Below, one piece after another: positions 6,123 through 58,382 of a stretch of 64,000 nucleotides of DNA (the stretch's first letter is position 1; each line of letters starts with the position of its first letter). The stretch lies in contig JABHSK010000002.1 in assembly GCA_018669975.1 (NCBI GenBank), forward strand, positions 5,535-69,534. Reading direction: 5' to 3'. The notes under the pieces are model-generated. The model had not been told where the DNA came from, made no database searches, and saw only the letters and a program-made list of their open reading frames with translations. The DNA comes from Candidatus Parcubacteria bacterium. Its GTDB lineage: Bacteria; Patescibacteriota; Patescibacteriia; UBA1558; GWA2-36-10. A program made the position numbers and the translations under genes.

Positions 6123-8813
6123 CTATATTCCACCACCGCCATCAAAGTCATCATCTGCATCAGGAGCAGCACCTGCATCAGGAGCAGCACCTGCACCAGG
6201 AGCAGCACCTGCACCATAACTATTCTCAGCCAATGAGTGACGCATTCTCTCAGTTAGTATATCAGCATCATCCGCTAGTCTATCTAACTGCTCTTTTGGT
6301 AATTGGAGTAACTCTTCTAGCTTAAGATTGCTAACAAACTCATTAAAGGCCTCATCATCTAAAACTGGCCTACCATTTCCATCGACCTGCATATCACCAG
6401 CTGGAGTTACCTCTGCAAAAGCTAAATGGGCATTCTTCATGTTTCCTCGAGCCAGTCTAGTCCTAGCTTCCGCTTGCCTCGCTCTAAATTGATCATTGTT
6501 CTCAGCGCCTGTTTGATTAGGAATATTGTTTATCTCCTGACTAAAATAAGCATTAAGAGCCTCAGGACCCCCGGCATAGGGACTAGTAGCGTCGCTAGCC
6601 ATCATAACCTCTGCATTACCATGCCTTATCTGGCCTGACACCATAACCTCCATCTTCTCTCTATCATTTGTCTTTGACATAAATTCTTTCCTCTGACCAG
6701 CATTCATTAATCCAGACATACTTCTAAGGAAAGTAGAGTCTGCGCCCATTCTAGCTACTTGTTTTCCTGAGATATCCCGACTAGCTGCCGCGGCAAAACT
6801 ATCTCTAAGACTTGTCTGCAATCTATCTCTAGCAGCATCTGCAGCCTGTGCATTCCCTGAGCTAGCCATCTCCCTTCTATGTTCTGCTTCACCTAAATCA
6901 TGACCAATATTACTAAAATGATTCTCGGTATCCGCAGCTCTGCCAAACTGAGAAATAGTAAGCGTCCTTTTATATGCTTCTGAATCTGTATTGATTTGTG
7001 CATTACCATTTTGATCTCTCACTGGGTTACCAGCTGCATCTGTAGTAAACATACTATCAGTTGGTCGAAATTCCCTTAAAGCATTTATCAATGAATTTCT
7101 GTCCTCACTTTCCATACCCTCCATAGCCTTGGCCCTAGTATCATCATCTTGAGCTAATATAGTAGTCATCACTGCTTGATGGTCAGTATTACCAGCATCA
7201 ATACCATCAAAATTCATATTCTTTAAGGTGGCTACTAAACCACTGTCTGCTATATTACGATCCATGGTCTCTTCAGTGTTAACTGAAGCAGCACGCTTCT
7301 GCAAACTTGTACGAGCATCTGCATCACCATATGTTTCAAATAAATCATCCATATTGCCAGCATCTAGAGTTTGACCACCAACAGTCACACTTGTTTCACC
7401 GCGAGCCTGAGCTGCTTTAGCAGCGTGATATTGAGCCTCATCACCACCCTTAGTAGCCCAATATGCTGCCTGATCGGTTACACCTTCTGCACGTGTACCC
7501 TCATACTCAGCTCTGCGCTTCCTGCTACCCTGATCTGCTGCCACTCTACGCATCCCAGCTCTAGTTACCAAGCCGCTAACTCTACCTGCTATACCTCCAC
7601 GGTCTTGCATTTGTTGGCCAGCTTCTGTCATGCTACGACCCGCCATGCCTCGCAATCTACTGAGTTGCCCCTTGATCATTCCCTCACCACTTCTGCCCTG
7701 ATACAAAGTTTTAGCACCAGCTGCCGCACCAGCCTTGACTAGACCACCAGCCTTGCGACCTACCTTGCCAGGAGCTGATTTTATATTAGAAGCCATATTA
7801 CCGGCTATACCAGCACCAGCCGCGCCTGATTTAGCAGTCATCTGCAATCCAGCCACTAAAATAGCTATACCAATAACAAAATTTAATACACTACTTGGTG
7901 CAGCTGCCGCACTAACATCATAAACTGGATGATTATCATCATCTTCACTGTCCCCGGGAACCTCACTGAAACTATCATTTATATTTCCATTTCCCGTAAT
8001 ACTAAAAGCTAGCCATAAAAAGAAAGCTAAACTGGGGCCAGCAATCAAATTCTTAAGCAATTCTTCTGACCATTCATTAAAATATTTTTCAGTTTTAGGA
8101 AAAGTAAAAGCTAAAAAAGCTAAAGGAGATAAAACCAGTAACACCCATAGAGTCACAATCCTCATAGCTAACATGGCCAAAAAGGCTAACACGACCATGA
8201 CTGTTATTAACAACATAATAGCACCCAAGAAATAGGCTACTACCACATTACTTTCAAGGCTTGGACCTGTAGAGTCGCTACCTTTTTGTAAAATATTCTG
8301 CAAACCCAAGGCAGTCATCACATTACCAGCTGCAATATTCTTAATTACAGAGACAAAGGTCAACATAATTACCTGAGAAAAATCAATGGCAATACCAACG
8401 ATAGTTTTACTAAAATTAATCAATACTGCTACTATTAACAATTTTTTCAACAATTGACGGTAACCGTAAGACTGAATTTTTAAAATAGTAGCTAAAGCAA
8501 TCACCAAGAGTATAAGGATGAAAAACATATTACTCAGATCTCGCAAAGCTTCCCAACCAGCTGAAACACCTGCTTCTTGAGTAAAGTTATTATATTCAGC
8601 CACAATAGGCAAAAGCAACAACTCCAATTTTAAAACTTGTGACAGTGGCCAAATAAACAAGCCATAGATAATATTGGCTAATAAATCATCTACAACTGAC
8701 TTTAAACCACCACCAGCATACGCAATACGTGGGGTCGCCAAACTAACAGCCGTAGCCAAGGTTACAAATAATACCCAATATTTACTTTTGATTTTTCTAG
8801 ATAAGATATTCAT
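6123..8813 (-). CDS. polytopic membrane protein, TrbL/VirB6-like N-terminal domain plus ~560-aa Ala/Gly/Arg/Asp-rich C-terminal domain
   Basis: signal peptide (..RIAYAGGG), about 8 predicted TM helices in the first 330 aa with a Gly/Ala-rich segment after the last TM; hydrophilic low-complexity tail ending in (GAGAAPx)3 DDDFDGGGGI; 6-bp gap to the giant gene. Confidence 0.45.
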   Translation of the reverse strand: MNILSRKIKSKYWVLFVTLATAVSLATPRIAYAGGGLKSVVDDLLANIIYGLFIWPLSQVLKLELLLLPIVAEYNNFTQEAGVSAGWEALRDLSNMFFILILLVIALATILKIQSYGYRQLLKKLLIVAVLINFSKTIVGIAIDFSQVIMLTFVSVIKNIAAGNVMTALGLQNILQKGSDSTGPSLESNVVVAYFLGAIMLLITVMVVLAFLAMLAMRIVTLWVLLVLSPLAFLAFTFPKTEKYFNEWSEELLKNLIAGPSLAFFLWLAFSITGNGNINDSFSEVPGDSEDDDNHPVYDVSAAAAPSSVLNFVIGIAILVAGLQMTAKSGAAGAGIAGNMASNIKSAPGKVGRKAGGLVKAGAAAGAKTLYQGRSGEGMIKGQLSRLRGMAGRSMTEAGQQMQDRGGIAGRVSGLVTRAGMRRVAADQGSRKRRAEYEGTRAEGVTDQAAYWATKGGDEAQYHAAKAAQARGETSVTVGGQTLDAGNMDDLFETYGDADARTSLQKRAASVNTEETMDRNIADSGLVATLKNMNFDGIDAGNTDHQAVMTTILAQDDDTRAKAMEGMESEDRNSLINALREFRPTDSMFTTDAAGNPVRDQNGNAQINTDSEAYKRTLTISQFGRAADTENHFSNIGHDLGEAEHRREMASSGNAQAADAARDRLQTSLRDSFAAAASRDISGKQVARMGADSTFLRSMSGLMNAGQRKEFMSKTNDREKMEVMVSGQIRHGNAEVMMASDATSPYAGGPEALNAYFSQEINNIPNQTGAENNDQFRARQAEARTRLARGNMKNAHLAFAEVTPAGDMQVDGNGRPVLDDEAFNEFVSNLKLEELLQLPKEQLDRLADDADILTERMRHSLAENSYGAGAAPGAGAAPDAGAAPDADDDFDGGGGI
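6157..6216. repeat. 18-bp tandem repeat gcatcaggagcagcacct x3.3 (coding, Gly/Ala/Pro-rich C-terminus)
   Basis: direct repeats read in the sequence at the 3' end of CDS 6123..8813. Confidence 0.85.
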
Positions 8814-8819
8814 ATATTT

Positions 8820-11800
8820 TTAATCTTTATGTACTTGTATCCAACCCTCATACTCTTTAATAGTAGAAGTAGTCCAATTGTCAAAAATTTCTATAATAGG
8901 TTTAAAACAAGAGGCATCTGCTACGCTAGGAACAGTGTAGACATTACCGTTTATAGTAGTAGTCGCACCGTCACATGGGAATAATGGATTGTATAAATAT
9001 TGGTTATACAAAACCTTATAACCTTCATGGCAAGCACCTTCAGTACCACCAAAACCTTGCCAGCTTCCCAATATACCTGGCATGTCTGATTCTGGATTAC
9101 AGAGTGGCAAATTATTTTTGTATTTACCATAATAACTACTTGGCACACCGCCATCACCCCAATCCATAACAATATCTCTAACCGGCATATGATCAGGATG
9201 AGCATGATAATAAAATTTAGCGGCTGCAAACAATGAGCTCTCCTGACTAACTATACTACCGCCATTGGAATTATTTATGGTAAAGCCCTCTTCGGGTATT
9301 CCATTTGAATCAATACAAAGTCCATTTCCACAAACTCTAAGAATACGCGGTTTAGAATAGGTATTACCAACCTGTGGTCTAGCAGAGGTGGACATATTAT
9401 GAGTGTCTATATAACTAGCCTGGTTATACAAACCAAGTGAATTAGACGGCATTCTCAATGAGTACATTTGTCTAAATAAGTAAGCAAAACTGTCCATAGT
9501 GTCCCACCAGCGATAAAAAGCACAGCTAGCATTTACACATCTAGCACTTGATTCATTCGTCCAATTACCAATGGGTCCCGGACTCATAAAAATAGCTGTT
9601 CTATCATAGAAATTATTAGTAAAAGGCTCCAATGGTAACATCACTTGAACTTGAAGATCTGTGCCAAATCTTGAAATAGGACTAACCGATGCACCAAAAG
9701 CATAACCTATAGACGTGGTAGCTCTTTCTATGTCTGAATTAGGAATAAACGGTGGAGTAACCGTAGGAGTCAAAATATAGTCATAATGTAATTCTGACCA
9801 CCATGAGTTGACAGTCACTCCTGGCGCATAAATATCATCAGAACTAGCTAAATAAGCTGAACGATCTTGCAAGTACGCCGGTGAAGTACTAGGGCTACCA
9901 TGCCAGAATGTAAACTCTGTATGAGGTAAAGTGTAGTTATAATTTTCTGGCTTTGATGCCCACCAAACATCAGTATTGACTATAGCATTGTCACCCAGAG
10001 GATCTACCTCCATCAATCTATTACAACGTTGGTAACAACCCTTGCCGTTTATATTTGCATTACAATCATCACCAGCTCTAGTTGAACCATACCCAGGAGG
10101 AGTTAATACACCGCCAAAGACATACATATTAAAATCTAGCGGATTACAAACATTGTACGGGAAAGCACCACCAGTGATATGAGCATAGTGATAATTTGGC
10201 ACACAAGCCACTGTAGTAGTAACAGAAGATGGTAATGATAAAAATTGATTCACATTAGTTGAACTATAAGCGCCTGTTCCAGATACACCCTCATCTAAAT
10301 AGTAGTACTCAATAGTAGCATCATACAATCTCTGTAATCGAGCCATAGTAACTCCATAGCTAGCGGCTGGCGCGTTTACAAAATCTTCGGGCTCAAATAA
10401 AGCGCGACTATCAACTCTAGGTCCAGGAGCACTACTATCATTTATATGGTTAACACCATTATTTTTTACAATCACATCCATACCTATTGGCCCAGGCAAT
10501 CCACCTGGCACATCAGTAGCTTCATACCTGGTAAATACATCTTTAAGATAATAATTTGTCAACAAATCCCTCAAAGTAATATCACCCGGGTCATCTAGTG
10601 CATCAGCATTAATCAGAGATCCAGTTGGAATCCTTAATAATAACGTACAATTACCACCCGGGCCACTATCACCACTAGCAGCACAATAATATCTATCTCT
10701 AGGAATTATATAAGGATTAGTAAAAGCACACATTTGTATATAATTTCCATAGGGGTCAGTATAACCAGCAGAATCATAATTATTATATAGACCCTGTGTA
10801 GAATTAATCTTGGTAATTGGATACCACAGATTACAATAGTTTGCTCTAGAATCTATATCTGAAACAATGCCAGAATATTTATCTTGTTCATAACAAATAC
10901 CTGGTAAATTAAGATTAGTCTCAATCTTTGTCATTGGCTCACATCTACCGCCAAGATACAAAAGACGCGAAGCATCTCCATCACAATTCATATGAGCATT
11001 ACATGGTGAGCCAATATAAGGACTAGTCACAAACTCTGAAGAACCATCCTCATGTATTATTTCATAGGCTTCGGCAGCATCAATAGCGCTTGTACCACTA
11101 AGTGTCGATACACAAACACCAGTGTAATAATCCTTGTCTGTTGGATAATAAGCAGTGTAAGTACCGTTTCCATAGGTAATCTTATTGTAAGAATCCTCAC
11201 AACCATCCTCCCAAGCATCACACAAACCATCTGCGTCAATGTCTAAGCAGGTACCGTCAGCTATAACACTCTCACAAATACTAGCATTACCGTAGCCAGG
11301 CCTTCTCTCTCTAATTTCCCTACCTGCAATACTAGTACCTGTATCCTGCGATATGCTCTGCGGAAAAGGAGAATCTGGTACTGCATAGCCCTTGGTAGTT
11401 AACCCTATATAATATGATTGGTTAGTATAATCTGGACTCAACCAACAAATCTCATCTTTACAAATACCAGTATTAATCCACTGGTAATAACCCATATGAC
11501 TAATACCATCTTCTGGGAAAGCCATACAGAATTGTCCGTTAGTAAGAGGTATACCATCAGCAGTATAGTTACTAGTTTCACAACTAGTTGTCGTACTGTG
11601 CACTCTATACATCAATCTTAGATCGATGTCTTCATTATCACCAAAATTATAAACTTCTAAATCTTTGGCTGGCAATAGGTTTGGAGCTGCATAACCAACA
11701 TAGTCTTTATCTGCCCACTGCAAGTGACTATTGTTTCCTGATACTCTATATTGGTAAACGGAAGTTGTCAGTGGGGTACTAGAAGTATAAGTATCCCAAT

Positions 11801-14800
11801 TGCCACACTTGGTGACACTACCTCGTTTATCATATTCAGTACAACTAGAAATATCATCACAGAGCACATCATATTGTTGTGTATCTGGATTAAATTCACT
11901 AGAGGATGACTTACATGCCAACCATTCAGCACATTGCCTACTCTTGTTTACCTTGATAATTGTATTAGCATTACAACCCACGTCACCATTAGCACAAATA
12001 TCTGGGTTAACTGGTTTATCAAAATATACATTCTTATTATAAGTAGTAGAAGCATTGTACAAAGAATCTACGCCTGCGTGTCCTGAACCCCAATTATTAG
12101 TGTCATAGAAAAGCATACAACCACTATTTCTATCCACATCAACACAACTCTTATAATCTATATTATTATTATCAAAATAATGATAATTCTTACATGACAC
12201 ACCGTTTATCCATTCTCCACCGCCAGTCGCATTCATTATTAAAACACACGTCATACCACCCACACCAGCATAGACAGCACCAGTACCGTCAACACAAGCG
12301 ACAGTATCTCCATCTTTAAGTCTTGGATCACAGCCAGGCGGGTCAAAAGGATCTTTAAATGTAGTACATAGGTTAGCTGTCTCTGGACACTCCGCTGCCC
12401 AACGATCTGGCTGGAAATCAACTATGTAATCTAAATACTCAAAATCAGATTGATCAAAATTAAAGTCCCCGTTATCACTACAACCTATCGGATCTATACC
12501 ATCTCCCAATGTATGAGTTTGGAACCAACCAGTAAATGGCACATACTGACCAGAAAGCATCCTAACATGATTATTTTCACGAAAGGAACAAGTCTTATTA
12601 CCTGGATCCTTAAAGTAATAAGTACCTTTAGACGAACCATAGGTTTCACAATCTAATGCTTCAGATACACATAGAGTATTCTCATATTGATCTGGATCAT
12701 TAAATTTATAAACCGTACTAAAGCCAGTAATCGCGTTGGCATTAGCCTTGTCTACTTTTGGTAGCCCAAGCTCCGAACAACCCTTAAACTGTTGCGGACA
12801 ATATTTGGATCTATCTGGTACCAAATAATCTAAACTATCTCTTGACACAGTAATCTCTGCTGGTTCTGGAGGCACTTCTAGATTAAAGGTTTCTTCAAAA
12901 GGATTGGTAGAATTATGTGTATCAATCACCGCCATACAACCTATCTTGTCTTCTCCACAAAGTTTTTCAAATGATTTTAAGTTATATAATGAGCCGTTCC
13001 TATCCCGATAAGCTTGGCAACCTAAATGAAAGGCAGAATAAGGACTATCGCAGGAAGCCGGCGTGCTCCAGGTATCTTTCCTTACATAAATATGATCTGT
13101 CACTTCACGCAAGGTGACGTTGTCAAAATAGACACTATCAACTCCATTGAATGTAAATGTTAATCCAGTCGTGGTGAAATCAAAATTTAAAATATCCTCT
13201 TCTGTAATAGCCACTGTATAAGGATGCCAATCACCACCTTGTATATTATTAAAGCTAGCAATCAGCGTGCTCGTGGCCATACTACCAATAGTAACGTCTA
13301 GTGTTGTTAAATTACTATTATTTCGCAGCCACCATGACAACTCATATTCTCTATTTCCTTGTAGCTGATTGGATAAATCACGATCAACACTTGTGTTTAC
13401 AGCATTGAGTTGCAACTTCATTGAATGTCCTTCATTCATAACAGATTCATTGGACATATCCAACGATCCCCAAAATGTTACCCAAGGATCATAGGTGCCT
13501 TCTTCAAAAGTGTCAGAAAGTATAGTTCTTAGATTATTTCCAGTATTACCCTTGTAGGCACGACAACCACCACTTTGTTCTCCACACTCTTCACTTAAAC
13601 TAGGAATAGCACTATACAATGCACCAGTTAAAGTACGGCGATAAGTATGACAATCATCACTAGCAAATATAACTCTGTCCTGCAGGCGCCAATAAGAATC
13701 TCCGTTGGTGTCAAAAAACTCTCTACAATTCGGATTATTTTCTGGATCATCTAATATAGTAGCTGTTTCTGGACCACAAGCAGCCATAGGGAAATTTCCA
13801 TTTGTAGCAGGTGCATCATCAATACATAAAATTCCGCCCCGTTGTACATTAGTACAAGGTGGTTGACCTTTACCAGCTATTGTCCGATTACTCTCTAAAG
13901 TATGCCAAGTTTTAATCTGATAACCAGATACGTCTTGACCTTCCCAAGTATAATAAGTGATTCCTAAATCATCAGCCACACATTGACGCAAATATGAAAA
14001 ATATTCTTTACCTTCACCGCCATCAGCCACCTCATCTAGGTTAGTGAACTCTTCGCAGCCAGCTTCTGAAGCTGGGCAAGTCTCGGCTGTATCAGGTATA
14101 AAATTATAATAATTAACTGCGTAATCTCCCTCGATATTATCAAAAATTGTGGTTTGTTCCGCAAAAGAAGCATAACCAACACACTCCTGAGGGCATAGAT
14201 CATCCTGTGAAATCACTGCTGGCACCATTGGTCCACCAGCTACTGGTCTATATGCCTGGCAACCAACCTCATCTTCACTACACATGATTCTCTCGCCACC
14301 CATATAGATAGTACTACCAACTCCATACTCGGAGTATGGCGTAGCACTCATACCTTCTTGGCTAACTATTTCTAATTTAATATTATCAAACCACATAGCT
14401 GAAGGAGCAGCACCATTTGGATTAACACCACCATAAGACATTACATCTATTCGCCCTCCACTAGTATTTTCATCTGTCATAAACAGACAACCAGCCCTTA
14501 ACCAACTAAAATCACTCGGTGGCACAAATCTCAAATCCGCATTATTTGGATGACCACTACCACCAAGTAAACAAGTACCAGTGCTTGTTGCTGGTCTTGC
14601 ATTATTTGTCGCACCGTTACAGTCGCCAGTCATATCACATAATTGTACAGCTACACGTGCTCCATAATCAGCTGGCGCCACATATTGAGCAGCATCAGCT
14701 GATATAATATAATATGTATTTGGCAGTAACTCCACATTCATCTGCAATACTTCTTCTGCATAAGGCTCTGTATTCCAATTACTTGCTCCCCAAGTATAAC

Positions 14801-16973
14801 CATTTGCTACTTTATTATTGTCATAATCAGCAGTAAAACCATTGCTTGGAGTCCCATTACTTGTTCTTGTCCAACCGTCTGGAGTATTAGTAGCAGTACC
14901 ATCATCATGAAAATTATTAAAACTACCATTTGGTACCAAGTTTACTCCTAGGTCAGGAACCATAACTATATACTCTGAACAATCAGCATAAGTTGAATCA
15001 CACTCAGAAGTATTTAAAAATAAATCATCTTCATTTAAAGTGAATAGGGTTGGATCCAGTGTCATATCCTCTTCCATAAACCAATCACCAGCTGCATCTC
15101 TAGTCTGTGAATACCGCTTACAGCCAGACTCCTCAGCTGTACAATATTCCAAAGTGCCCTCTATATAGCCCTTTGTACCTAAATCAGCGTTGTCAAAAAC
15201 TAAACAACCTGAATAAATGTCCCCATCGTCACACATGTCACCGTTGAAGCGCCAAATATTTTCACTTCTGGTGCAGTATCCATATTGTCCTTCTAGACAA
15301 TTACCACTTTCATCTTCTCGTAGACATGTCTGTGGATCAGCACAATATTCTTGACGACTGCTTCCATCTGAAGATTCTAAAGCTGGTCCATAAACCATAG
15401 CATTACATCTAGTTGGTGGTGCTCTTAGCACCCAATCTGGATCAACTAAATGATAAAATGGATTGTGATGATTATCATAAGTTGGATCAATTCCATATTC
15501 ACAAGATCCACCATCTTCAAAACAATTAATAACCTCTTCTACAGTCACCGCCTTATCAGCTACACGCTGAGCAGCTAACTCCATACCAACTGGAAAAATA
15601 TTAGCTTTCCTTAATTTAACTAAATCTCTATAACACAGGCCTGATTTGAAACAATCTTTATTTTCATTATCTGGATTATTCGGTCCTATGATTGGTAAAT
15701 CACCATCCAAGAGTCCATCATCAATGGCACTCCTAAGAGTTTCTTGATTAGAAACGGCCAACATTAAATTGGTGTCGATGACACAATTATCTAATGCCCG
15801 ATAATCTTTTTGTGCTGGACAAATAGCAAAATCTTGCAAAAACGTCCAATCCTCTACTGGTGTTAACTCTGTCGCTTTTAAATCTGAAAATACATTACCT
15901 ACACTCCATAATTCGTCTATATCTACACAACCACCCAAAGCACATGCTACCGTTGGTTTGATACCTGGATTTTTCTCTAGTTCACTTGCTGGAGGATTGA
16001 TAATATTCATACCCTCTTCAAACGCCCGCTTCATCAACTTTGAAGACAAAGTAGATACAAACATATTACCAGCTTCAGCTAAAATAGCTGACAAAGTACC
16101 TCCTTCGGCATTTTCAAAAAAAGCGAACTGATCCCCAGCAATAGCCGCATCCCATTGAGCCTCGTTCATGTTCATAATATCTGTACAGCCAGTCTTTACG
16201 TCTCCTGAGATAGTTGTCTTTGAGTCCAAATAACCCTTACACATCTCAAGAAACATTGCTTTATGTGCTGCAGCCATAGCACCAGTTTTACTCACCTCTT
16301 CCCTTATTCTATCTCTTTGACCTAAATAGGTTTGTTCATATCCAAATAAAGCTATAAAAGCGTCATCAAAATCAGCTCTTTTGTAGTTTGGTGTAATAGT
16401 CAGACTATCTTTAACATAGTTAGCCCAGTTTCTACCATACAATGAATCACTAAAATTACTCCAATTCTCTTTAATTGCTGAAAAGTCACACTTCGGTGCT
16501 GGCGGCTCTTCAGAATCTAAAATATCTAGAGTTAGGCTAAGTTGCAAATCTAAACTTGGGTTACATAAATCTATGCCTAAGCTAGCCAAGGTCTCTCCAT
16601 TTGACCCCGCAGACTGCATTAGGCCACCTATAAACTCACCCTTTGCTGCATCTGCTGCTCTATGTGTAGCACTTTCTCTTGGTTTAGTATCATAGAGTGA
16701 TTTTTTACCAGAGCCTGACTCTGATATACTAGTAGCTAAATCATAGGCCAGATTATTCATAAACATTCTAGCCGTATCAACTGCCACCTTATGAATCATA
16801 CCCTCCCAAACACCTGCTAATATACCCTGAAGTCTTTCCCAGCCCCATTTTGCTCCATTAACAGTAACTACGCCAGGGGAAAAAGCCTGGACAGGTTTTG
16901 GTTTTGCCAACAAGGGTCCGACAACCATCAATGACAGTACAATCACGATTATCGCTCTTTTGTAATTGTTCAT
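8820..16973 (-). CDS. giant secreted Cys-rich protein (2717 aa) with CBM4/9-like and PKD-like segments
   Basis: N-terminal signal peptide (IIVIVLSLMVVGPLLAKPKPVQAFS); about 100 Cys; Asn/Gly/Thr/Tyr/Asp-rich; NGSFNNFHDDG...PDGWT and FEEGTYDPW segments resemble CBM_4_9 beta-sandwich starts; MDWGDGGV resembles the PKD WDFGDG motif; uninterrupted 8.15-kb ORF. Confidence 0.8.
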   Translation of the reverse strand: MNNYKRAIIVIVLSLMVVGPLLAKPKPVQAFSPGVVTVNGAKWGWERLQGILAGVWEGMIHKVAVDTARMFMNNLAYDLATSISESGSGKKSLYDTKPRESATHRAADAAKGEFIGGLMQSAGSNGETLASLGIDLCNPSLDLQLSLTLDILDSEEPPAPKCDFSAIKENWSNFSDSLYGRNWANYVKDSLTITPNYKRADFDDAFIALFGYEQTYLGQRDRIREEVSKTGAMAAAHKAMFLEMCKGYLDSKTTISGDVKTGCTDIMNMNEAQWDAAIAGDQFAFFENAEGGTLSAILAEAGNMFVSTLSSKLMKRAFEEGMNIINPPASELEKNPGIKPTVACALGGCVDIDELWSVGNVFSDLKATELTPVEDWTFLQDFAICPAQKDYRALDNCVIDTNLMLAVSNQETLRSAIDDGLLDGDLPIIGPNNPDNENKDCFKSGLCYRDLVKLRKANIFPVGMELAAQRVADKAVTVEEVINCFEDGGSCEYGIDPTYDNHHNPFYHLVDPDWVLRAPPTRCNAMVYGPALESSDGSSRQEYCADPQTCLREDESGNCLEGQYGYCTRSENIWRFNGDMCDDGDIYSGCLVFDNADLGTKGYIEGTLEYCTAEESGCKRYSQTRDAAGDWFMEEDMTLDPTLFTLNEDDLFLNTSECDSTYADCSEYIVMVPDLGVNLVPNGSFNNFHDDGTATNTPDGWTRTSNGTPSNGFTADYDNNKVANGYTWGASNWNTEPYAEEVLQMNVELLPNTYYIISADAAQYVAPADYGARVAVQLCDMTGDCNGATNNARPATSTGTCLLGGSGHPNNADLRFVPPSDFSWLRAGCLFMTDENTSGGRIDVMSYGGVNPNGAAPSAMWFDNIKLEIVSQEGMSATPYSEYGVGSTIYMGGERIMCSEDEVGCQAYRPVAGGPMVPAVISQDDLCPQECVGYASFAEQTTIFDNIEGDYAVNYYNFIPDTAETCPASEAGCEEFTNLDEVADGGEGKEYFSYLRQCVADDLGITYYTWEGQDVSGYQIKTWHTLESNRTIAGKGQPPCTNVQRGGILCIDDAPATNGNFPMAACGPETATILDDPENNPNCREFFDTNGDSYWRLQDRVIFASDDCHTYRRTLTGALYSAIPSLSEECGEQSGGCRAYKGNTGNNLRTILSDTFEEGTYDPWVTFWGSLDMSNESVMNEGHSMKLQLNAVNTSVDRDLSNQLQGNREYELSWWLRNNSNLTTLDVTIGSMATSTLIASFNNIQGGDWHPYTVAITEEDILNFDFTTTGLTFTFNGVDSVYFDNVTLREVTDHIYVRKDTWSTPASCDSPYSAFHLGCQAYRDRNGSLYNLKSFEKLCGEDKIGCMAVIDTHNSTNPFEETFNLEVPPEPAEITVSRDSLDYLVPDRSKYCPQQFKGCSELGLPKVDKANANAITGFSTVYKFNDPDQYENTLCVSEALDCETYGSSKGTYYFKDPGNKTCSFRENNHVRMLSGQYVPFTGWFQTHTLGDGIDPIGCSDNGDFNFDQSDFEYLDYIVDFQPDRWAAECPETANLCTTFKDPFDPPGCDPRLKDGDTVACVDGTGAVYAGVGGMTCVLIMNATGGGEWINGVSCKNYHYFDNNNIDYKSCVDVDRNSGCMLFYDTNNWGSGHAGVDSLYNASTTYNKNVYFDKPVNPDICANGDVGCNANTIIKVNKSRQCAEWLACKSSSSEFNPDTQQYDVLCDDISSCTEYDKRGSVTKCGNWDTYTSSTPLTTSVYQYRVSGNNSHLQWADKDYVGYAAPNLLPAKDLEVYNFGDNEDIDLRLMYRVHSTTTSCETSNYTADGIPLTNGQFCMAFPEDGISHMGYYQWINTGICKDEICWLSPDYTNQSYYIGLTTKGYAVPDSPFPQSISQDTGTSIAGREIRERRPGYGNASICESVIADGTCLDIDADGLCDAWEDGCEDSYNKITYGNGTYTAYYPTDKDYYTGVCVSTLSGTSAIDAAEAYEIIHEDGSSEFVTSPYIGSPCNAHMNCDGDASRLLYLGGRCEPMTKIETNLNLPGICYEQDKYSGIVSDIDSRANYCNLWYPITKINSTQGLYNNYDSAGYTDPYGNYIQMCAFTNPYIIPRDRYYCAASGDSGPGGNCTLLLRIPTGSLINADALDDPGDITLRDLLTNYYLKDVFTRYEATDVPGGLPGPIGMDVIVKNNGVNHINDSSAPGPRVDSRALFEPEDFVNAPAASYGVTMARLQRLYDATIEYYYLDEGVSGTGAYSSTNVNQFLSLPSSVTTTVACVPNYHYAHITGGAFPYNVCNPLDFNMYVFGGVLTPPGYGSTRAGDDCNANINGKGCYQRCNRLMEVDPLGDNAIVNTDVWWASKPENYNYTLPHTEFTFWHGSPSTSPAYLQDRSAYLASSDDIYAPGVTVNSWWSELHYDYILTPTVTPPFIPNSDIERATTSIGYAFGASVSPISRFGTDLQVQVMLPLEPFTNNFYDRTAIFMSPGPIGNWTNESSARCVNASCAFYRWWDTMDSFAYLFRQMYSLRMPSNSLGLYNQASYIDTHNMSTSARPQVGNTYSKPRILRVCGNGLCIDSNGIPEEGFTINNSNGGSIVSQESSLFAAAKFYYHAHPDHMPVRDIVMDWGDGGVPSSYYGKYKNNLPLCNPESDMPGILGSWQGFGGTEGACHEGYKVLYNQYLYNPLFPCDGATTTINGNVYTVPSVADASCFKPIIEIFDNWTTSTIKEYEGWIQVHKD

Positions 16974-19987: not shown

Positions 19988-20596
19988 TTATTTTTGTATT
20001 TTAAGTTTTCCCTGCCTTAGAACTTCCATTTGATTATTAAAAAATTTAATAATAGTTGAAGGTGGATTTTTAGGTAGAGTTCCAGCATTTATAAATAAAT
20101 CTGGCTGGATTGCAGATTTAGCAAATTGTTTTTTAATATCACTAGCACTGTAAGAATCCCCAGTAGAAGCTATATTGGCTGAAGTCGATACCAGTGGACT
20201 TCCTAAAATAGTAACTAAATCTTTAGCAAAAGGATGACTAGATACACGTAGGGCTAAAAAATCATCGCAATGCTCCTGCCACTTACAATATTTAAATGGT
20301 AGCACCAAAGTCAGCGGTCCAGGCCAATACTTACCAGCCATGCGCCTAGCTGATTCAGAAAAGTCCACTAAAGATGTAGCATAAACTAAATCTGAAACCA
20401 AAACTGGCAAAGGAAATTTTCTAGCTCTATTTTTTATATTGTATATTTTATCAACAACTCGAGCATTATAAAAATCAGCACCCAAACCATAGGAAGTTTC
20501 AGTGGGGTAAACCACCACTCCTCCTCCACGGATAACTTCCAATGCCTCCTGTAAAACACTGGCACGATTTGCACTTGATAATTTTACTTCTTTCAC
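19988..20596 (-). CDS. tsaC: L-threonylcarbamoyladenylate synthase (YrdC/Sua5 family)
   Basis: VIRGGGVVVYPTETSYGLGADFYN...YNIKNRARKFPLPVLVSDL is the YrdC domain signature. Confidence 0.8.
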   Translation of the reverse strand: MKEVKLSSANRASVLQEALEVIRGGGVVVYPTETSYGLGADFYNARVVDKIYNIKNRARKFPLPVLVSDLVYATSLVDFSESARRMAGKYWPGPLTLVLPFKYCKWQEHCDDFLALRVSSHPFAKDLVTILGSPLVSTSANIASTGDSYSASDIKKQFAKSAIQPDLFINAGTLPKNPPSTIIKFFNNQMEVLRQGKLKIQK

Positions 20597-21797: not shown

Positions 21798-24632
21798 TTA
21801 TTTTACTACGATGCTGATAATTCTATTTTTAATATGAATAAATTTTATCAGTTCCTTGTCCTCAATATATTTTTTTATTTTATCCTGCTCTAAAATTTGT
21901 TTTTTAATGTCTTCACTAGGCTCAGTGTCATGTGGTAGTTCAATTTCACTACGAACTTTACCATTAACCTGAATTCCAATGGTCACCAGCTCATCTTGAG
22001 CTAATTTAGCATCGTATTTAGGCCATTTTTCATGGGCCAAACTATCTTTGTGTCCCAATTCACTCCACAACTCCTCAGCCATATGTGGTGCAAAGGGTGC
22101 TAATATTAATACAAATTTTTCAAACACCTCGTTGTTTATTTTGTCTTGTTTTTCCAAAGCATTTGCCAAAATCATCAATTGGGCTATAGCTGTATTAAAA
22201 CGCATAGCTACAATATCTTCACCAACCTTCTGAATGCTCTTATGTAAAACATTGTTAATGTCTACATTATCAGCTTTTTCATCTAGCTTGTCCTGCAAAT
22301 CCCAAGCTCTATTTAAAAATCTATAAATACCAGCTACACCTTTATCGTCCCAAGCAATTGATTGATCAAACGGACCCATAAACATTTCATACATCCGCAC
22401 AGTATCTGCACCATACCTACTAACATAACTATCGGGATTAATAACATTGCCCTTAGATTTTGACATCTTGATGCCACCCTCACCTAAAACCATACCCTGA
22501 GCAGTACGCTTTTTGTATGGTTCACTACCAACCTTCTTTGGTATTACTCCAATGTCATATAAAAATTTAAAAATAAAACGAGAATACAGGAGATGCAAGG
22601 TAGTATGCTCCATGCCACCATTATACCAATCAACTGGCAGCCAATACTCGGCTTTTTTCTTATCTATTAACTCCTGATTATTTTTGGGGTCACAAAAACG
22701 AATAAAATACCAGTTAGACCCAGCCCAATTAGGCATTACATCAGTTTCTCTTCTTGCCTGACCACCACAGGACGGACACTCTGTTTTTACCCAGTCCTCT
22801 GCCTTGGCTAATGGTGATTGACCATCATCGGTTGGCTTAAAATCTTTAATATCTGGCAACTCAATCGGCAAATCATCCTCAGCCACTGCCACCCAACCAC
22901 ACTTATCACAATTAACCATCGGGATTGGCTCACCCCAATAACGTTGGCGAGAAAAAATCCAATCATGCAATTTATAATTAACAGCAGCTTTACCTAATTT
23001 ATTTTTTTCAAGCCACTTAATAATTTTTTGTTTAAACTCTGCTGTCAACAAACCATCAAATTCACCAGAATTAATAGCTCGACCCTCACCACCGTAGGCT
23101 CCATATTTATCTAAATATATCAATATACCTATTTTATTATACTCATGACTTACACTCTGTAAAGCTTCTTTTTCACTCAACCAAATTATTTCATGTTTAG
23201 CCTTTTCTGTATCAGAAATATCTTGAGCTGACTCGTCATCTAGTTCTAATAAAATAGGATTGTCCACTCGATAACGCCAAACGTCTTTATTTTCAGCATA
23301 AAAATGCTCCTCTGTTTTATTACCCAATCTTTTTATTGCCTTTGCTTTATAGCCAGTTTCTTCAAGAACTTCCCGTTCAGCAGCCTGCTCTGGTGTCTCT
23401 CCTTCTTCTATACCACCAATGACAGGTGCTAACCAATTAAATTTTTTCCATTTGAGTAATAAAAATTTGCCATCTGACTTACGTTGTATGGTAGCTGAGA
23501 TTGTCTCCCTATATTCCTCGCCATCTCTAACTTCACCGTCGACTGGCATCACCACATCCCTAATTTCGATGTTATATTTTTTAGCAAATTCATAATCACG
23601 TTGATCGTGACCTGGTACAGCCATAATCGCCCCCGTACCATAGCTCATCATCACATAGTCAGCTACAAAAATAGGTATCTCTTCATTGTTTACCGGATTA
23701 ATAGCTTTAAGACCTTTTAATTCAACACCTGTCTTGTCTTTATTTAAATCTGCTCTTTCTAAATCAGATTTCTTTTTAGCTGCAACAATATACTTTTTGA
23801 CTTCTGCTAAATTACTAATCTTGCCTTCCAATTGATGGATAGCTATGTGTTCTGGTGCTACCACCATAAAAGTAGCTCCAAATAAAGTGTCTGGTCGAGT
23901 AGTAAAAACTTCTAGTATTTCCTGACTGTCTTTTATTTTAAATTGCACTTCTGCACCTTCGCTACGACCAATCCAATCTACTTGCTGTTTTTTTATTTGT
24001 GGTAAAAAGTCTACTTGTTCTAAATCATTTATCAATCTATCAGCGTATTCTGTAATCTTGAGCATCCATTGCTCTTTTTCCTGTTTAACCACTTCCCCAC
24101 CGCAACGTTCACAGGCACCACTAACCACTTCTTCATTGGCTAGACCAATTTTACAAGAAGTACACCAATTAATATTTTCTTTAGCTTTATAGGCCAGTCC
24201 TTGTTTGTGCATTTGGATAAAAATCCACTGGGTCCAACGATAATAATCTGGATCTGTGGTAGAAAAACTTCTATCCCAATCAAAACTTAAGCCGATGTCC
24301 TTCATCTGCTTTATGTAGTTGCTTATATTTTTTTCAGTAGTTATTTTGGGTGGTGTATTTGTTTTAATAGCATAATTTTCGGCTGGCAAACCAAAAGCGT
24401 CAAAGCCCATTGGATACAATGTTTGAAATCCCTGCATGCGTTGATATCGACATAATACATCCATAGCAGTATAAGAACGTAAATGTCCGGTATGTAAACC
24501 ATCCCCAGAAGGATAGGGAAATTCTACTAAGCCATAAAATTTTTGTTTGCCTTTATCATCAACTAAAAAAGTATTGTTTTCGTCCCAATACTGCTGCCAT
24601 TTTTTTTCAATAGTATCTGCTTGGTATTTCAT
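21798..24632 (-). CDS. leuS: leucyl-tRNA synthetase with inserted Nudix-like domain
   Basis: HTGH (GLHTGHLRSY), CP1 editing motif TTRPDTLFGATFMVVAPEH, KMSKS (IKMSKSKGN) and anticodon-binding regions all present; an extra ~130 aa carrying the Nudix box GGIEEGETPEQAAEREVLEETGY sits between the HDQRDYEFA and NYKLHDW blocks. Confidence 0.95.
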   Translation of the reverse strand: MKYQADTIEKKWQQYWDENNTFLVDDKGKQKFYGLVEFPYPSGDGLHTGHLRSYTAMDVLCRYQRMQGFQTLYPMGFDAFGLPAENYAIKTNTPPKITTEKNISNYIKQMKDIGLSFDWDRSFSTTDPDYYRWTQWIFIQMHKQGLAYKAKENINWCTSCKIGLANEEVVSGACERCGGEVVKQEKEQWMLKITEYADRLINDLEQVDFLPQIKKQQVDWIGRSEGAEVQFKIKDSQEILEVFTTRPDTLFGATFMVVAPEHIAIHQLEGKISNLAEVKKYIVAAKKKSDLERADLNKDKTGVELKGLKAINPVNNEEIPIFVADYVMMSYGTGAIMAVPGHDQRDYEFAKKYNIEIRDVVMPVDGEVRDGEEYRETISATIQRKSDGKFLLLKWKKFNWLAPVIGGIEEGETPEQAAEREVLEETGYKAKAIKRLGNKTEEHFYAENKDVWRYRVDNPILLELDDESAQDISDTEKAKHEIIWLSEKEALQSVSHEYNKIGILIYLDKYGAYGGEGRAINSGEFDGLLTAEFKQKIIKWLEKNKLGKAAVNYKLHDWIFSRQRYWGEPIPMVNCDKCGWVAVAEDDLPIELPDIKDFKPTDDGQSPLAKAEDWVKTECPSCGGQARRETDVMPNWAGSNWYFIRFCDPKNNQELIDKKKAEYWLPVDWYNGGMEHTTLHLLYSRFIFKFLYDIGVIPKKVGSEPYKKRTAQGMVLGEGGIKMSKSKGNVINPDSYVSRYGADTVRMYEMFMGPFDQSIAWDDKGVAGIYRFLNRAWDLQDKLDEKADNVDINNVLHKSIQKVGEDIVAMRFNTAIAQLMILANALEKQDKINNEVFEKFVLILAPFAPHMAEELWSELGHKDSLAHEKWPKYDAKLAQDELVTIGIQVNGKVRSEIELPHDTEPSEDIKKQILEQDKIKKYIEDKELIKFIHIKNRIISIVVK

Positions 24633-34216: not shown

Positions 34217-34528
34217 TAGTTTGGTTGTTATGTTTAATTCTTTCTTCCAGCGCTCTATCTTATCCTGCCAGGATGACTCAAAAATAAAACTCCACTCTTT
34301 ACTCCAAACAAAAAACCGCCCCTGTTTCCTAAAATCACGCTGAAAACAAAACGGTTTCTGTATGAATATTTCAAAATTTATTTATTCTTAAATCTACTGC
34401 GTCTTTTAAGTTTTTTACGCCTTCGTCTTTTCACGGATATTCTCTTGTGTTTCAGTTTTGTTCCCATGTCTTAGTTATATAAATTAATGGTAGAAATATA
34501 GCAAATTGTCTATAAAATGTCAATATGG

Positions 34529-34605
34529 TGGTCGTCCTGCCGGGACTTGAACCCGGGACCCCCACTTTATAAGAGTGGTGCTCTAACCAACTGAGCTACA
34601 GGACG
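34529..34605 (-). tRNA. tRNA-Ile, anticodon UAU (reads AUA)
   Basis: manual fold: acceptor CGTCCTG/CAGGACG, D-arm GCTC-AGTTGGTTA-GAGC, anticodon arm CCACT-CTTATAA-AGTGG (loop U33-UAU-A37), T-arm CCGGG-TTCAAGT-CCCGG, discriminator A, encoded CCA; body very similar to ileX-type tRNA-Ile2 but with T instead of C at position 34. Confidence 0.85.
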
Positions 34606-34684
34606 ATGAAAACATACATATTATAAATCAAACAACGTATTTTGTGAAGACTTTGGTCGTATTCGATATTAAACCCTAGTCACA

Positions 34685-35794
34685 CTAAACGCTGTTTATT
34701 ATATTCAACTTCTTTTGTATTTTGTCTATGACCAGATCTTTGGTTTCCTCAATTTCTTTGTCGATGACAATTTTGGCCAAGCGACGATACCCCTTGCCTT
34801 GCATATCCTTAGTCAGTTCCAAGGCATTTATATTATTAATGCTATAAACACAAACTTTTGTTTTATACAATTCTACTTGGTAAAAAATAACAGCCGCTTG
34901 AACATCTGGTGTAGATAAAATTAGATCTTTGACCATCTCCTCAAAATCCTGTGGCAAATTATCTATCTCGTCATGTTGCAAATACGAACTAATAATATTG
35001 TCTTTCTTTTTTAAACGAGATAATACTCTACCCCAATTTTTAAGAGTACTAATATCTTTAGTTCTATATAGAGTCTCTACAATCTGACCACGGTCAGCTC
35101 CTTTTATGATTAGCTGGCTAGCCAACTCCAGTGTCTTTGGATTAACTTGCGGCGACTGAAAACTATTAGTAGCTGAAATCATACCTGCCAATAAACAGGT
35201 GGCGATATTCTTATCTAGGTGTTTATTCAAAACATGATAGGAAACCTCTGCTAGAGAAGTAACATTACTTTCTACCACATTTAATTGTCCAAAATTTTCA
35301 TTGAGCAATGATCGATCGATATTAATGATGGGTACATCATGAAAAAAACTACGGTTACTATCAAACACTTTACCAAGAGCCTCCAGACTAGGAGCACCAA
35401 AGGTGATAATTAAGTCATATTTATAGTCATCTTTATGTGTCGATAGATCTGAATCATTAAACAATCCATCTTCTGGCACAATATCAATATGTAATTGCTT
35501 GCCTTTGACATCATAACTAAGCTGTTTAACTTTGGTCTTGGATGTATCTAAAATAATCTTGAATTTATTAACATCATCTAGATTTTCCTTAAAGCTTACC
35601 TTGGATGGCAAGAACTTAAGTTTGTGCACTTTACCATCAAAAACCAAATCAACCAGCTTCTTTTGTTTTGACAAAAAAAGCCACCAGGCTGCAGCCGTGC
35701 TGACAGTGTCTACACTGGGGCTTTGAGGTCCGGTCAACAAAATGCGATTAGACGAACTCAAAAGCTTGCTAAATTGTTTTAATGGCAAATCCAT
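34685..35794 (-). CDS. DHH-superfamily-like protein with degenerate catalytic motifs
   Basis: ILLTGPQSPSVDTVSTAAAWW resembles DHH motif I; INIDRS sits where NrnA has NIDHH; no GGGH motif. Confidence 0.4.
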   Translation of the reverse strand: MDLPLKQFSKLLSSSNRILLTGPQSPSVDTVSTAAAWWLFLSKQKKLVDLVFDGKVHKLKFLPSKVSFKENLDDVNKFKIILDTSKTKVKQLSYDVKGKQLHIDIVPEDGLFNDSDLSTHKDDYKYDLIITFGAPSLEALGKVFDSNRSFFHDVPIINIDRSLLNENFGQLNVVESNVTSLAEVSYHVLNKHLDKNIATCLLAGMISATNSFQSPQVNPKTLELASQLIIKGADRGQIVETLYRTKDISTLKNWGRVLSRLKKKDNIISSYLQHDEIDNLPQDFEEMVKDLILSTPDVQAAVIFYQVELYKTKVCVYSINNINALELTKDMQGKGYRRLAKIVIDKEIEETKDLVIDKIQKKLNIINSV

Positions 35795-39007: not shown

Positions 39008-39973
39008 ATGCAAAATCATAAATTGACCAGCCAAGCTATATACCAGCAAATAGATCGAGCCCACAAGATACTCTTGATCTCCCATCGTAATCCCGATGGT
39101 GATACCTTGGGTTCAAATTTTGCTATGTTCAATTTTCTCAAAAATCAAGGAAAAGAAGTTACTAGTTTCTGTGTAGATCCAGTTCCCAATTATCTAAACT
39201 TTCTGCCAGATAGTCACAATCTTAGCAATGACCATAGGGTCTTCACCAAAACCTATGACACTGTTATTACTTTAGACTGTTCTACTATAGAACTAACTGC
39301 TGCTGAATATCTTCTCCAAGCCATCCCTTCCAAATATACCTTTATAAACATCGACCACCATGTTTCTAATCCTGGCTACGGTGATATAAGTCTAGTTTCA
39401 CCACAGACATCCTCTACCGCTGAATTACTACACAACCTGTTTATGGACTGGAAGATTGAATGGAATGAAAACATTGCTACCAACCTAGCCTGTGGAGTCA
39501 TTACTGATACCGGCGGTCTAAAAAATCCTGCTACTAGCTATCAATCTTTATCCGCTACCTCTGACTTAGTTAATAAGGGTGCTAATATTCATAAAATAAT
39601 GAATGTTACACTCAACCAAACAAGTATCAACAAACTCAAACTCTGGGGACGCGCTTTAGAAAGATTAACTAAAGTAGAAAAATATAATCTAGTCTATACT
39701 TTTATAACCATAAAAGACTTTGAAGAATGCCAAGCAGATGAAGACGCCAGCGAAGGCATGTCTAATTTTCTGCATGTCCTCAAAGAGGGCGAAGTTATTT
39801 TAGTATTACGAGAAGTTGGAAATAATACTATCAAAGGTTCGCTACGTACTACCGGTAAAATAGATTTAACTAAAATAGCTGGCCTATTTGGTGGTGGTGG
39901 ACACAGAAAAGCAGCTGGCTTTAGCTTGTCAGGTAAGCTGGATTATGATAATAATAAACTGAGGATTATTTAA
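39008..39973 (+). CDS. nrnA: bifunctional oligoribonuclease/pAp phosphatase NrnA (DHH/DHHA1)
   Basis: HRNPDGDTLGS, NIDHHVSN, GGGGHRKAAGF. Confidence 0.8.
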   Translation: MQNHKLTSQAIYQQIDRAHKILLISHRNPDGDTLGSNFAMFNFLKNQGKEVTSFCVDPVPNYLNFLPDSHNLSNDHRVFTKTYDTVITLDCSTIELTAAEYLLQAIPSKYTFINIDHHVSNPGYGDISLVSPQTSSTAELLHNLFMDWKIEWNENIATNLACGVITDTGGLKNPATSYQSLSATSDLVNKGANIHKIMNVTLNQTSINKLKLWGRALERLTKVEKYNLVYTFITIKDFEECQADEDASEGMSNFLHVLKEGEVILVLREVGNNTIKGSLRTTGKIDLTKIAGLFGGGGHRKAAGFSLSGKLDYDNNKLRII

Positions 39974-57599: not shown

Positions 57600-58382
57600 A
57601 TGGCTATAAATGACTACAAAAAATTCCTCCACTCTAGGCAGTTACATCCTAATACTGTCAAAAATTACCTTTGGCATCTTAATAAATTTTTTAGTTGGCT
57701 TAAAGATGAAAAAATAACTGAAACAAAATTAAAAGATTATCACCAATTCATGATAAGCAATCATCCAAGAATAAATACCATTAATCTTAGATTCATTATT
57801 TTAAACAACTATCTCAAATTTTTACAAAAAAGATTCCGCTTTGAATTATTATCACCAGAAGATACTAACTTGATTATACTGACAGATGATCAACTGCAAA
57901 CATTTTTGGACAAGCCACTAAAACATCAGGGCAACACCAATCTTCGAGACAAAGCTCTGTTGGAGTTATTGTATTCTACTGGAATAAAAGTTGGTCAAAT
58001 AGTTCAGCTTAAAAAACAATATATTGATGAAATAACTAAAGAATTGATATTACCTGATAAAAAACATATAGCCATTAAACCTCTAGCTTGGTTTCACTTA
58101 GATAAATATTTAAACACTCGTCATGATAATAGTCCCTGGCTGTTTATCAATCTAGATCGAGCTAAAAAAGCTGATGATAACAACCTGTCTGTTAGGTCAG
58201 TGGAAAGAATTATTGAGAGATATGCAAAACTAATGATTCCTATATTAAAAATTAATCCTCAGATACTTAGAAATACTCTAGCACATACACTAAAGTTGGA
58301 AGGCGCACAAAAAGAAAACATTAGAACTTCGCTACATTTCAAAACTAAGACTGGTGCTGATAATTATCTTAAAAAAATTTAA
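57600..58382 (+). CDS. tyrosine recombinase (XerD/integrase family) homolog with R->K and H->Q substitutions at catalytic positions
   Basis: N-terminal SAM-like domain; RDKALLELLYSTGIKVGQ (K in place of box I Arg), ILRNTLAH (Q/N in place of His of HxxR), LHFKTKTGADNYL (His and Tyr present). Confidence 0.6.
   Translation: MAINDYKKFLHSRQLHPNTVKNYLWHLNKFFSWLKDEKITETKLKDYHQFMISNHPRINTINLRFIILNNYLKFLQKRFRFELLSPEDTNLIILTDDQLQTFLDKPLKHQGNTNLRDKALLELLYSTGIKVGQIVQLKKQYIDEITKELILPDKKHIAIKPLAWFHLDKYLNTRHDNSPWLFINLDRAKKADDNNLSVRSVERIIERYAKLMIPILKINPQILRNTLAHTLKLEGAQKENIRTSLHFKTKTGADNYLKKI

Follow-up and report, generated by a model that had tools for sequence, protein, structure and literature searches.

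Telling AUA from AUG is a classic difficulty of the genetic code, and the standard bacterial solution is lysidine, which is introduced by the essential enzyme TilS. Mycoplasma mobile (Taniguchi et al. 2013) does without it: its tRNA-Ile2(UAU) has an unmodified U34, its IleRS relies critically on Arg865, the counterpart of E. coli W905, and its own ribosome is required to discriminate AUA from AUG (PMC3575796). In a Bacillus subtilis tilS-deletion suppressor carrying tRNA-Ile1 G34U (Köhrer et al. 2014), U34 is likewise unmodified, AUA binding is strong, and AUG binding is weak (PMC3919564). Genes for tRNA-Ile(TAT) also occur together with tilS, in Lactobacillus casei, L. plantarum, Cyanothece, and Ferrimonas (PMC3575796). 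Solutions based on U34 were cited in 2013-2014 as rare exceptions from about 9 to 19 species (nine in 2013 and 19 in 2014, plus 371 unassigned metagenomic sequences; PMC3575796, PMC4013482), and a 2026 preprint still speaks of 'rare cases'. In the literature searched, we found no paper linking lysidine or TilS with CPR bacteria.

The stretch of DNA analysed here, 64 kb in length and referred to below as the window, carries a single tRNA gene, which ARAGORN calls as tRNA-Ile with the anticodon tat at gene position 35 and which matches the Rfam tRNA family well above its gathering score (Table 1). In the same cmscan search, no other Rfam family exceeded its threshold in the 64 kb window. In the transcript sense, i.e., as the reverse complement of the window, the gene reads CGUCCUGUAGCUCAGUUGGUUAGAGCACCACUCUUAUAAAGUGGGGGUCCCGGGUUCAAGUCCCGGCAGGACGACCA, and the cloverleaf is its minimum-free-energy fold (-29.6 kcal/mol, z = -2.68). 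The D-arm is GCUCAGUUGGUUAGAGC, and the anticodon loop is CU-UAU-AA. The gene has the features by which a tRNA is recognized, namely the cloverleaf, a D-loop with GG, and a T-loop conforming to GTTCRA (here GTTCAAG).

Table 1. Location of the tRNA gene and of other features of the window considered in the text.
Feature	Position in window	Strand	Basis
tRNA-Ile(UAU) gene, 77 nt, A73 and CCA encoded	34529-34605	minus	ARAGORN, Rfam, cloverleaf as minimum-free-energy fold
Match to RF00005 (tRNA)	34532-34605	minus	Rfam cmscan, 73.4 bits against a gathering score of 29, E = 3.6e-14
Anticodon (plus strand reads ATA)	34569-34571	minus	
Putative sigma-70-like promoter, TTCACA-17 nt-TATAAT	34620-34648	minus	Consensus scan, 11/12 matches; promoter function inferred
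TsaC/Sua5-family L-threonylcarbamoyladenylate synthase	19988-20596	minus	TIGR00057, 147.4 bits (cut-off 123.2); PF01300 Sua5_yciO_yrdC, 148.3 bits
Tyrosine recombinase	57600-58382		

A first-pass annotation of this DNA had placed a tRNA with an encoded UAU anticodon at this position, had described its D-arm, its CU-UAU-AA loop, and its discriminator A, and had proposed a tRNA gene search as a check. ARAGORN and Rfam confirm the gene, ARAGORN on the window returns the same anticodon (TAT) and the same Ile label, and all the elements described are present, to which we add the minus strand and the encoded CCA. Its likening of the tRNA body to the ileX type is not borne out as a specific resemblance when the E. 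coli tRNAs are compared: identity is 73% to tRNA-Ile1(GAU), 71% to elongator tRNA-Met, and 68% to ileX, and the D-arm is exactly that of elongator tRNA-Met, not that of ileX. Position 34 is T, not C, in the window gene and in three related genes discussed below (L062, L068, and L139), in contrast to the ileX-type substrates of TilS. Because lysidine is a cytidine derivative and position 34 is T, lysidine cannot form on this tRNA. An elongator tRNA with a UAU anticodon written into the gene itself, as kept in all three relatives, is instead the feature of the M. mobile type.

The elements A73, C4:G69, U12:A23, A35, U36, A37, and A38 are all present in the window tRNA; like C29:G41, these belong to the identity set of E. 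coli IleRS, and position 29:41 is A:U here instead of C:G. By analogy with the E. coli system, the tRNA would be charged with isoleucine by IleRS. TsaC carries out the first step of t6A37 synthesis, and t6A37 is expected on bacterial ANN decoders. The tsaC gene that had already been reported within the window is indeed there, recognized by TIGR00057 as well as by Pfam, and the window tRNA probably carries t6A37, as its counterparts in other bacteria do. TsaC is nevertheless an accessory in this context and is not specific to tRNA-Ile(UAU).

Codon usage was counted in 49 curated window genes comprising 18,670 codons. Of these codons, 482 are AUA, corresponding to 25.8 per 1000 codons and 33.6% of the isoleucine codons, so that the expectation of abundant AUA codons in this AT-rich genome proved correct; AUA is even more frequent than AUG (22.1 per 1000) and lies well within the 'high' class of Muraski et al., defined as >10 per 1000 codons (PMC12514573). 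In the few highly expressed genes of the window (S6, S15, SSB, EF-P, and HU), AUA accounts for only 7 of 46 isoleucine codons, compared with 34% overall, as would be expected if the tRNA that decodes it were a minor one, like the lysidine tRNAs. Since the 'Ile' label given by ARAGORN derives from the anticodon alone, we examined the meaning of AUA independently, using alignments of LeuRS, PNPase, IF-2, ClpP, RbfA, and S15 to their E. coli orthologues. At the 56 aligned AUA sites, the E. coli residue is I in 20 cases, V in 15, L in 9, and M in one, a residue profile that matches those of AUU (I at 39 of 109 sites) and AUC (I at 20 of 56 sites). Compared with Komeilibacteria orthologues, AUA codons of the window stand opposite ATA 18 times, ATT 12 times, ATC 8 times, and ATG twice. 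Judged from these alignments, AUA is read as isoleucine in this genome, and the encoded proteins require that this decoding be efficient.

The window has a G+C content of ~36%, and its gene products include EF-P, SSB, S6, KsgA, TsaC, LeuRS, IF-2, RbfA, Maf, and NrnA-like DHH proteins, as well as ClpP, RNase Y, YmdB, HU, YifB, LspA, a DksA-like protein, PNPase, and S15. Numerous window proteins have no family match, and several carry bacterial TSP3 repeats. By this content, the window is typical for CPR bacteria. None of the 49 window genes stops with TGA (0/49). Recoding of TGA was considered and rejected: the genes are intact under table 11, and one called gene just past the window stops with TGA. 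The window sequence is also found on the metagenome contig ERZ27237598 k141_11351 (163.5 kb), and the same proteins occur in ~9 other assemblies. Among the GTDB genomes listed, two are the closest relatives that bear a name: a tRNA 100% identical to that of the window is encoded on JABJNO010000003.1 (Ca. Parcubacteria SI075_bin20; L068), and one 96% identical on MHKS01000004.1 (Ca. Komeilibacteria RIFOXYD1_FULL_37_29; L062). The window and MHKS01000004.1 share the gene order ClpP-DHH-RbfA-IF-2, 369-aa DHH-like protein, tRNA(UAU); their IF-2 proteins are 76% and their ClpP proteins 86% identical, and GenBank labels those proteins as Komeilibacteria. The host is thus a Komeilibacteria-like member of the Patescibacteria/CPR.

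At the syntenic site of a more distant relative (L139, a JGI contig with an IF-2 70% identical to that of the window), a tRNA(UAU) is again present. Of its 77 positions, 17 depart from the window tRNA, and 16 of these differences form eight doubly compensated stem pairs, of which the acceptor stem has four, the T stem three, and the anticodon stem one; the seventeenth sits in the D-loop, and the anticodon loop matches that of the window tRNA. A tRNA is found at this site only in relatives with an IF-2 identity of at least 70%, where it already has the UAU anticodon, and in the IF-2-based metagenome scan, the site lacks a tRNA in relatives whose IF-2 is 48-50% identical. Upstream of the gene lies a sigma-70-like element whose -10 hexamer stops 14 nt before the mature tRNA 5' end (Table 1). 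When the window, L062, and L068 are aligned, the blocks CTTCACAAAA and TATAAT are invariant, while the spacer around them has diverged, and we infer that TTCACA-17-TATAAT serves as the promoter of the tRNA gene. This pattern of substitution and conservation indicates that the tRNA gene is maintained by selection. Conservation at the same site, the compensatory changes, and the invariant hexamers together exclude both a misassembly and a gene mutated only recently.

To place the gene in a wider context, one genome per GTDB species was scanned with a pattern consisting of the D-arm and CTTATAA, and the matches were grouped by record title. The scan recovered at least 119 tRNA-Ile(UAU) loci, at least 77 of which are labelled Patescibacteria/CPR (Saccharibacteria, Peribacteria, Peregrinibacteria, Magasanikbacteria, Dojkabacteria, Paceibacteria, Falkowbacteria, Komeilibacteria, Doudnabacteria, Shapirobacteria, SR1, and others). 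The remainder comprise at least 13 loci from 'uncultured Gammaproteobacteria' MAGs, at least 11 of Ignavibacteria type, at least 9 without a lineage label, at least 2 from Dormibacterota, at least 5 from scattered other lineages, and at least 2 from DPANN archaea (L078 and L087). Some of the Gammaproteobacteria labels (e.g., L015 and L051) are doubtful, because the tRNA body is identical to that of a Falkowbacteria genome. The view of the first-pass annotation that such tRNAs are rare in bacteria therefore agrees with the literature on cultured bacteria and fails for the gene's own lineage. Among the matches listed, 100 tRNA(UAU) genes (90 unique) have the canonical layout; A73 is present in 100 of 100 and C4:G69 in 75 of 100, and most stem positions are paired in all 100 through exchanges among GC, CG, AU, and UA. 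Stem mismatches in this set are few at 6:67, 7:66, 27:43, and 30:40, and number 16 at 31:39, the last pair of the anticodon stem. In a Flavobacterium MAG (L057), the tRNA(UAU) equals the adjoining tRNA-Ile(GAU) save at position 34, which means that single-step origins occur; overall, tRNA-Ile(UAU) has multiple origins.

Several other readings of the window gene were weighed against this body of evidence. If AUA had been reassigned, e.g., to methionine as in many mitochondria, the gene would be a tRNA-Met(UAU) or a tRNA otherwise charged, which would sit well with a body whose identity to E. coli elongator tRNA-Met (71%) is about that to tRNA-Ile1 (73%). The codon alignments make this extremely improbable: methionine is found at 1 of 56 aligned AUA sites, compared with 22 of 66 aligned AUG sites, and between close relatives AUA is exchanged with AUU or AUC 20 times and with AUG twice. 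Because AUA sites align as I, V, or L and exchange with AUU and AUC, a mitochondrion-like use of AUA for methionine is rejected. It is equally hard to credit that the anticodon stems from faulty assembly or sequencing, or from a recent change of C34 or G34 to T in an ordinary tRNA-Ile2 or tRNA-Ile1. The Flavobacterium pair, which differs only at position 34, illustrates how such a gene could arise, but here the same IF-2 protein and flanks recur on contigs of several independent assemblies, and the UAU anticodon is kept in L068, L062, and L139, in the last of these alongside the eight compensated stem changes. An imported auxiliary tRNA, borne by a phage or another mobile element, is also very unlikely. 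Phages often carry tRNAs for rare codons, and other parts of the window contain the tyrosine recombinase (Table 1) and genes resembling those of type IV secretion; however, among phage sequences the best full-length match reaches only ~79% identity and carries a tRNA-Met annotation, the gene sits among housekeeping genes in an order common to Komeilibacteria MAGs, no integrase or repeats adjoin it, and it has its own conserved promoter-like element. Taken together, the sequence data argue that the window gene is, with high probability, a functional, independently transcribed tRNA-Ile with an encoded UAU anticodon that reads AUA as isoleucine.

Whether this tRNA works alone is a separate matter. 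We lean, with modest confidence, towards tRNA-Ile(UAU) as the sole AUA decoder, tilS (the absence of which the first-pass annotation had predicted) and tRNA-Ile2(CAU) having been lost. The alternative, in which tilS and a tRNA-Ile2(CAU->LAU) are kept and the UAU tRNA is auxiliary, as proposed for L. casei and L. plantarum, has an appreciable but minority chance of being correct; such double systems exist (PMC3575796), and TilS was found in 98.18% of surveyed bacteria (PMC6063277). Neither TilS nor IleRS nor a tRNA-Ile(CAU) is encoded in the ~80 kb inspected of a genome assumed to be ~1 Mb, i.e., in the window (Pfam and NCBIfam scans for TilS and IleRS), in the ~7 kb before its start (judged from gene calls), and in the 9.2 kb after its end. 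The PP-loop motif SGGxDS of TilS, sought with a regular expression, and E. coli TilS, used as a tblastn query, both gave no match in the window, in the 9.2 kb following it, or at the GTDB loci listed (at least 119). LeuRS is the only class Ia synthetase in the window and its flanks, and the tblastn matches to E. coli IleRS were set aside as ValRS/LeuRS paralogues (~23% identity). Large KMSKS synthetase genes beside the tRNA(UAU) in several of the listed CPR loci were likewise considered as IleRS candidates and proved to be ValRS (seven) and LeuRS (two). Among the loci listed, the ~0.9 Mb flanking UAU tRNAs of other genomes also contain no TilS, which is weak evidence of absence because just ~1 hit would be expected there by chance.

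The CAU tRNAs near UAU tRNAs bear on both of these possibilities. Around 14 of the listed CPR loci contain such tRNAs, mostly two, one of them initiator-like and one other, and a third is found at none of these ~14 loci. The non-initiator CAU tRNAs, each of which could be Met or Ile2 and in the latter case would favour a redundant decoder, have identities of 0.62-0.77 to E. coli tRNA-Met and of 0.57-0.72 to E. coli tRNA-Ile2, and 12 of the 14 have U32, an elongator-Met trait among Firmicute tRNAs. The recurrence of one initiator-like and one other CAU tRNA, with no third, speaks against redundancy; as a sign that Ile2 has been replaced, the two-CAU pattern is suggestive and does not amount to evidence. 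Patescibacterial genomes are small, which makes redundancy seem less likely.

As a plausible decoding mechanism for the reading that we prefer, an AUA-reading tRNA-Ile(UAU), AUA would be recognized by Watson-Crick pairing between U34 and A, and isoleucine would be inserted. By analogy with M. mobile and the B. subtilis suppressor, U34 probably carries no modification, or at least none of the xm5U type, and the IleRS of this lineage would accept U34; A37 would carry t6A, again by analogy. Misreading of AUG could be limited because U-G pairs are weak on the ribosome of this organism and because tRNA-Met competes for the codon. The first-pass annotation had proposed that U34, rather than a lysidine-modified C34, decodes AUA, and the parts of this proposal that hold are the encoded UAU anticodon and the use of AUA as isoleucine.

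The window tRNA and its many CPR relatives suggest that TilS-independent decoding may far exceed the cultured record. As a tentative generalization, which we regard as possible rather than probable, much of the Patescibacteria/CPR, together with some Ignavibacteria and Dormibacterota, may decode AUA by tRNA-Ile(UAU) without a lysidine system. If so, TilS, which has been called near-universal and essential, would be lacking in a large share of bacterial diversity, and these lineages would need an IleRS and a ribosome able to discriminate AUA from AUG without modification of C34. Absence of tilS would also provide many independent natural experiments on the recognition of U34 by IleRS and on the avoidance of isoleucine at AUG, and would render antibacterials targeted at TilS ineffective on these organisms; with tilS present, the window tRNA would be an ordinary redundant isoacceptor. 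The possible phylum-wide pattern is a more interesting lead than the single gene.

Compared with canonical tRNA-Ile2(CAU->LAU), the window tRNA has the same task of reading AUA as isoleucine and shares A73, C4:G69, A37, A38, and the t6A37 machinery; it differs in having T, not C, at position 34 of the gene. Use of U34 for AUA is likewise found in eukaryotic tRNA-Ile(UAU), in which the anticodon becomes pseudouridine-A-pseudouridine, and in the archaeal tRNA-Ile(UAU) of tiaS-less archaea (Nanoarchaeum), but these belong to other domains, often with an intron, a eukaryote-type IleRS, and pseudouridylation. Within bacteria, L. casei, L. plantarum, Cyanothece, and Ferrimonas have a genomic tRNA-Ile(UAU) as here, whereas their genomes are large and tilS is demonstrably kept. 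The B. subtilis suppressor demonstrates that one point mutation yields a tRNA-Ile(UAU), and the Flavobacterium gene looks like a natural example of this step. In contrast to that mutant, which arose from tRNA-Ile1 in the laboratory, the window gene is old, diverged, and stand-alone, with its own promoter-like element. The closest parallel is with tRNA-Ile2(UAU) of M. mobile, which also combines an encoded UAU anticodon on an Ile-type tRNA with a small AT-rich genome and frequent AUA codons; M. mobile belongs to the Mollicutes and the present host to the Patescibacteria, and the two tRNAs are of independent origin. The M. mobile system is the best mechanistic model for the window tRNA. AUA decoding of the Mycoplasma mobile type is already known, and what is new here is an example in an uncultured lineage that uses AUA more than AUG.

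Genes for tRNA-Ile with a genomically encoded UAU anticodon, tRNA(UAU), are widespread in Patescibacteria MAGs, which account for at least 77 of at least 119 GTDB loci carrying the D-arm and CTTATAA pattern; among the matches listed, further cases come from Ignavibacteria, Dormibacterota and two DPANN archaea. UAU-anticodon tRNA genes are called rare in the literature searched. In several CPR genomes (e.g., loci L025, L037, L046, L071, L094, L098, and L101, among others), valS adjoins the tRNA. Among all the matches listed, frequent cluster partners include tRNA-Val(GAC) (32 genes) and tRNA-Val(UAC) (12 genes), as well as an initiator tRNA accompanied by a second CAU tRNA. The ValRS of L094 is 1088 aa long and carries a big internal insertion.

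In L057, a Flavobacterium sp. MAG (1518 region and 3276-3349), the tRNA(UAU) is identical to the same-contig tRNA-Ile(GAU) save for a G34-to-T change. It may be a naturally occurring equivalent of the suppressor mutation of B. subtilis (the laboratory G34U mutant of tRNA-Ile1 that suppresses TilS deletion), or else a polymorphism or assembly variant. The archaeal genes of L078 and L087 span 140 and 121 nt, respectively, and therefore contain introns. In the bacterial loci L065 and L039, unrelated sequence follows on the 3' side of the D-arm and CTTATAA match; either an intron or truncation to a tRNA half could explain this. Rfam detected no tRNA at the pattern match in either locus, just a separate intact tRNA close by.

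Coordinates of features in the window and of two archaeal tRNA genes in their own loci
Feature	Location	Strand	Size	Remark
Type IV secretion-like block	window 6123-16973	(-)		continues upstream of window start
LeuRS	window 21798-24632	(-)	944 aa	NUDIX hydrolase domain inside
Second strong promoter-like site	window 34495-34523	(-)		TTGACA-17-TATATT with TG extension
DHH-family paralogue	window 34685-35794	(-)	369 aa	adjoins the tRNA
DHH-family paralogue	window 39008-39973	(+)		
Archaeal tRNA(UAU)	L078 2873-3012		140 nt	
Archaeal tRNA(UAU)	L087 7850-7970		121 nt	

Downstream of the window tRNA, the second promoter-like site begins 6 nt past the tRNA 3' end, with no terminator-like hairpin between the two, and presumably drives the small downstream ORFs. 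Its TTGACA is kept in two relatives that also carry a tRNA(UAU) (L062 and L068). Two DHH-family paralogues flank the infB-rbfA-maf cluster; the tRNA-adjoining copy is strongly diverged, with a DHH match (E = 2.5e-4) that falls short of the Pfam threshold, and its position is kept in Komeilibacteria relatives at 61-67% identity.

In the window LeuRS, the CP1 editing domain (PF13603) occupies residues 219-375, and a Nudix insertion (PF00293, residues 383-490; 49.6 bits, cut-off 21.1) lies immediately C-terminal of it. We know of no aminoacyl-tRNA synthetase with an embedded Nudix domain. The LeuRS proteins of two Dormibacterota loci, L014 and L031, each give a single continuous match to the bacterial LeuRS model, with no Nudix-family match.

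The 49 curated window genes end in TAA (43) or TAG (6) and never in TGA. Of the 52 ORFs with 100 aa or more, one terminates at TGA, compared with 47 of 342 ORFs from other low-GC loci; out-of-frame TGA is abundant (1280 in the +1 and +2 frames). Recoding of TGA was considered and ruled out: because the genes stay whole when translated with table 11 and a called gene lying just outside the window (L126 3231-3992) stops at TGA, the near-absence of TGA stops is a strong bias, not recoding.

Within the window, the type IV secretion-like block includes a TrbL/VirB6-like protein of 896 aa and a giant protein of 2717 aa, and a longer JGI contig places PrgI, TraC-like, and VirB4-like (DUF87) genes immediately upstream of the window start. 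This arrangement agrees with the patescibacterial type IV secretion system that is the subject of a 2025 preprint.
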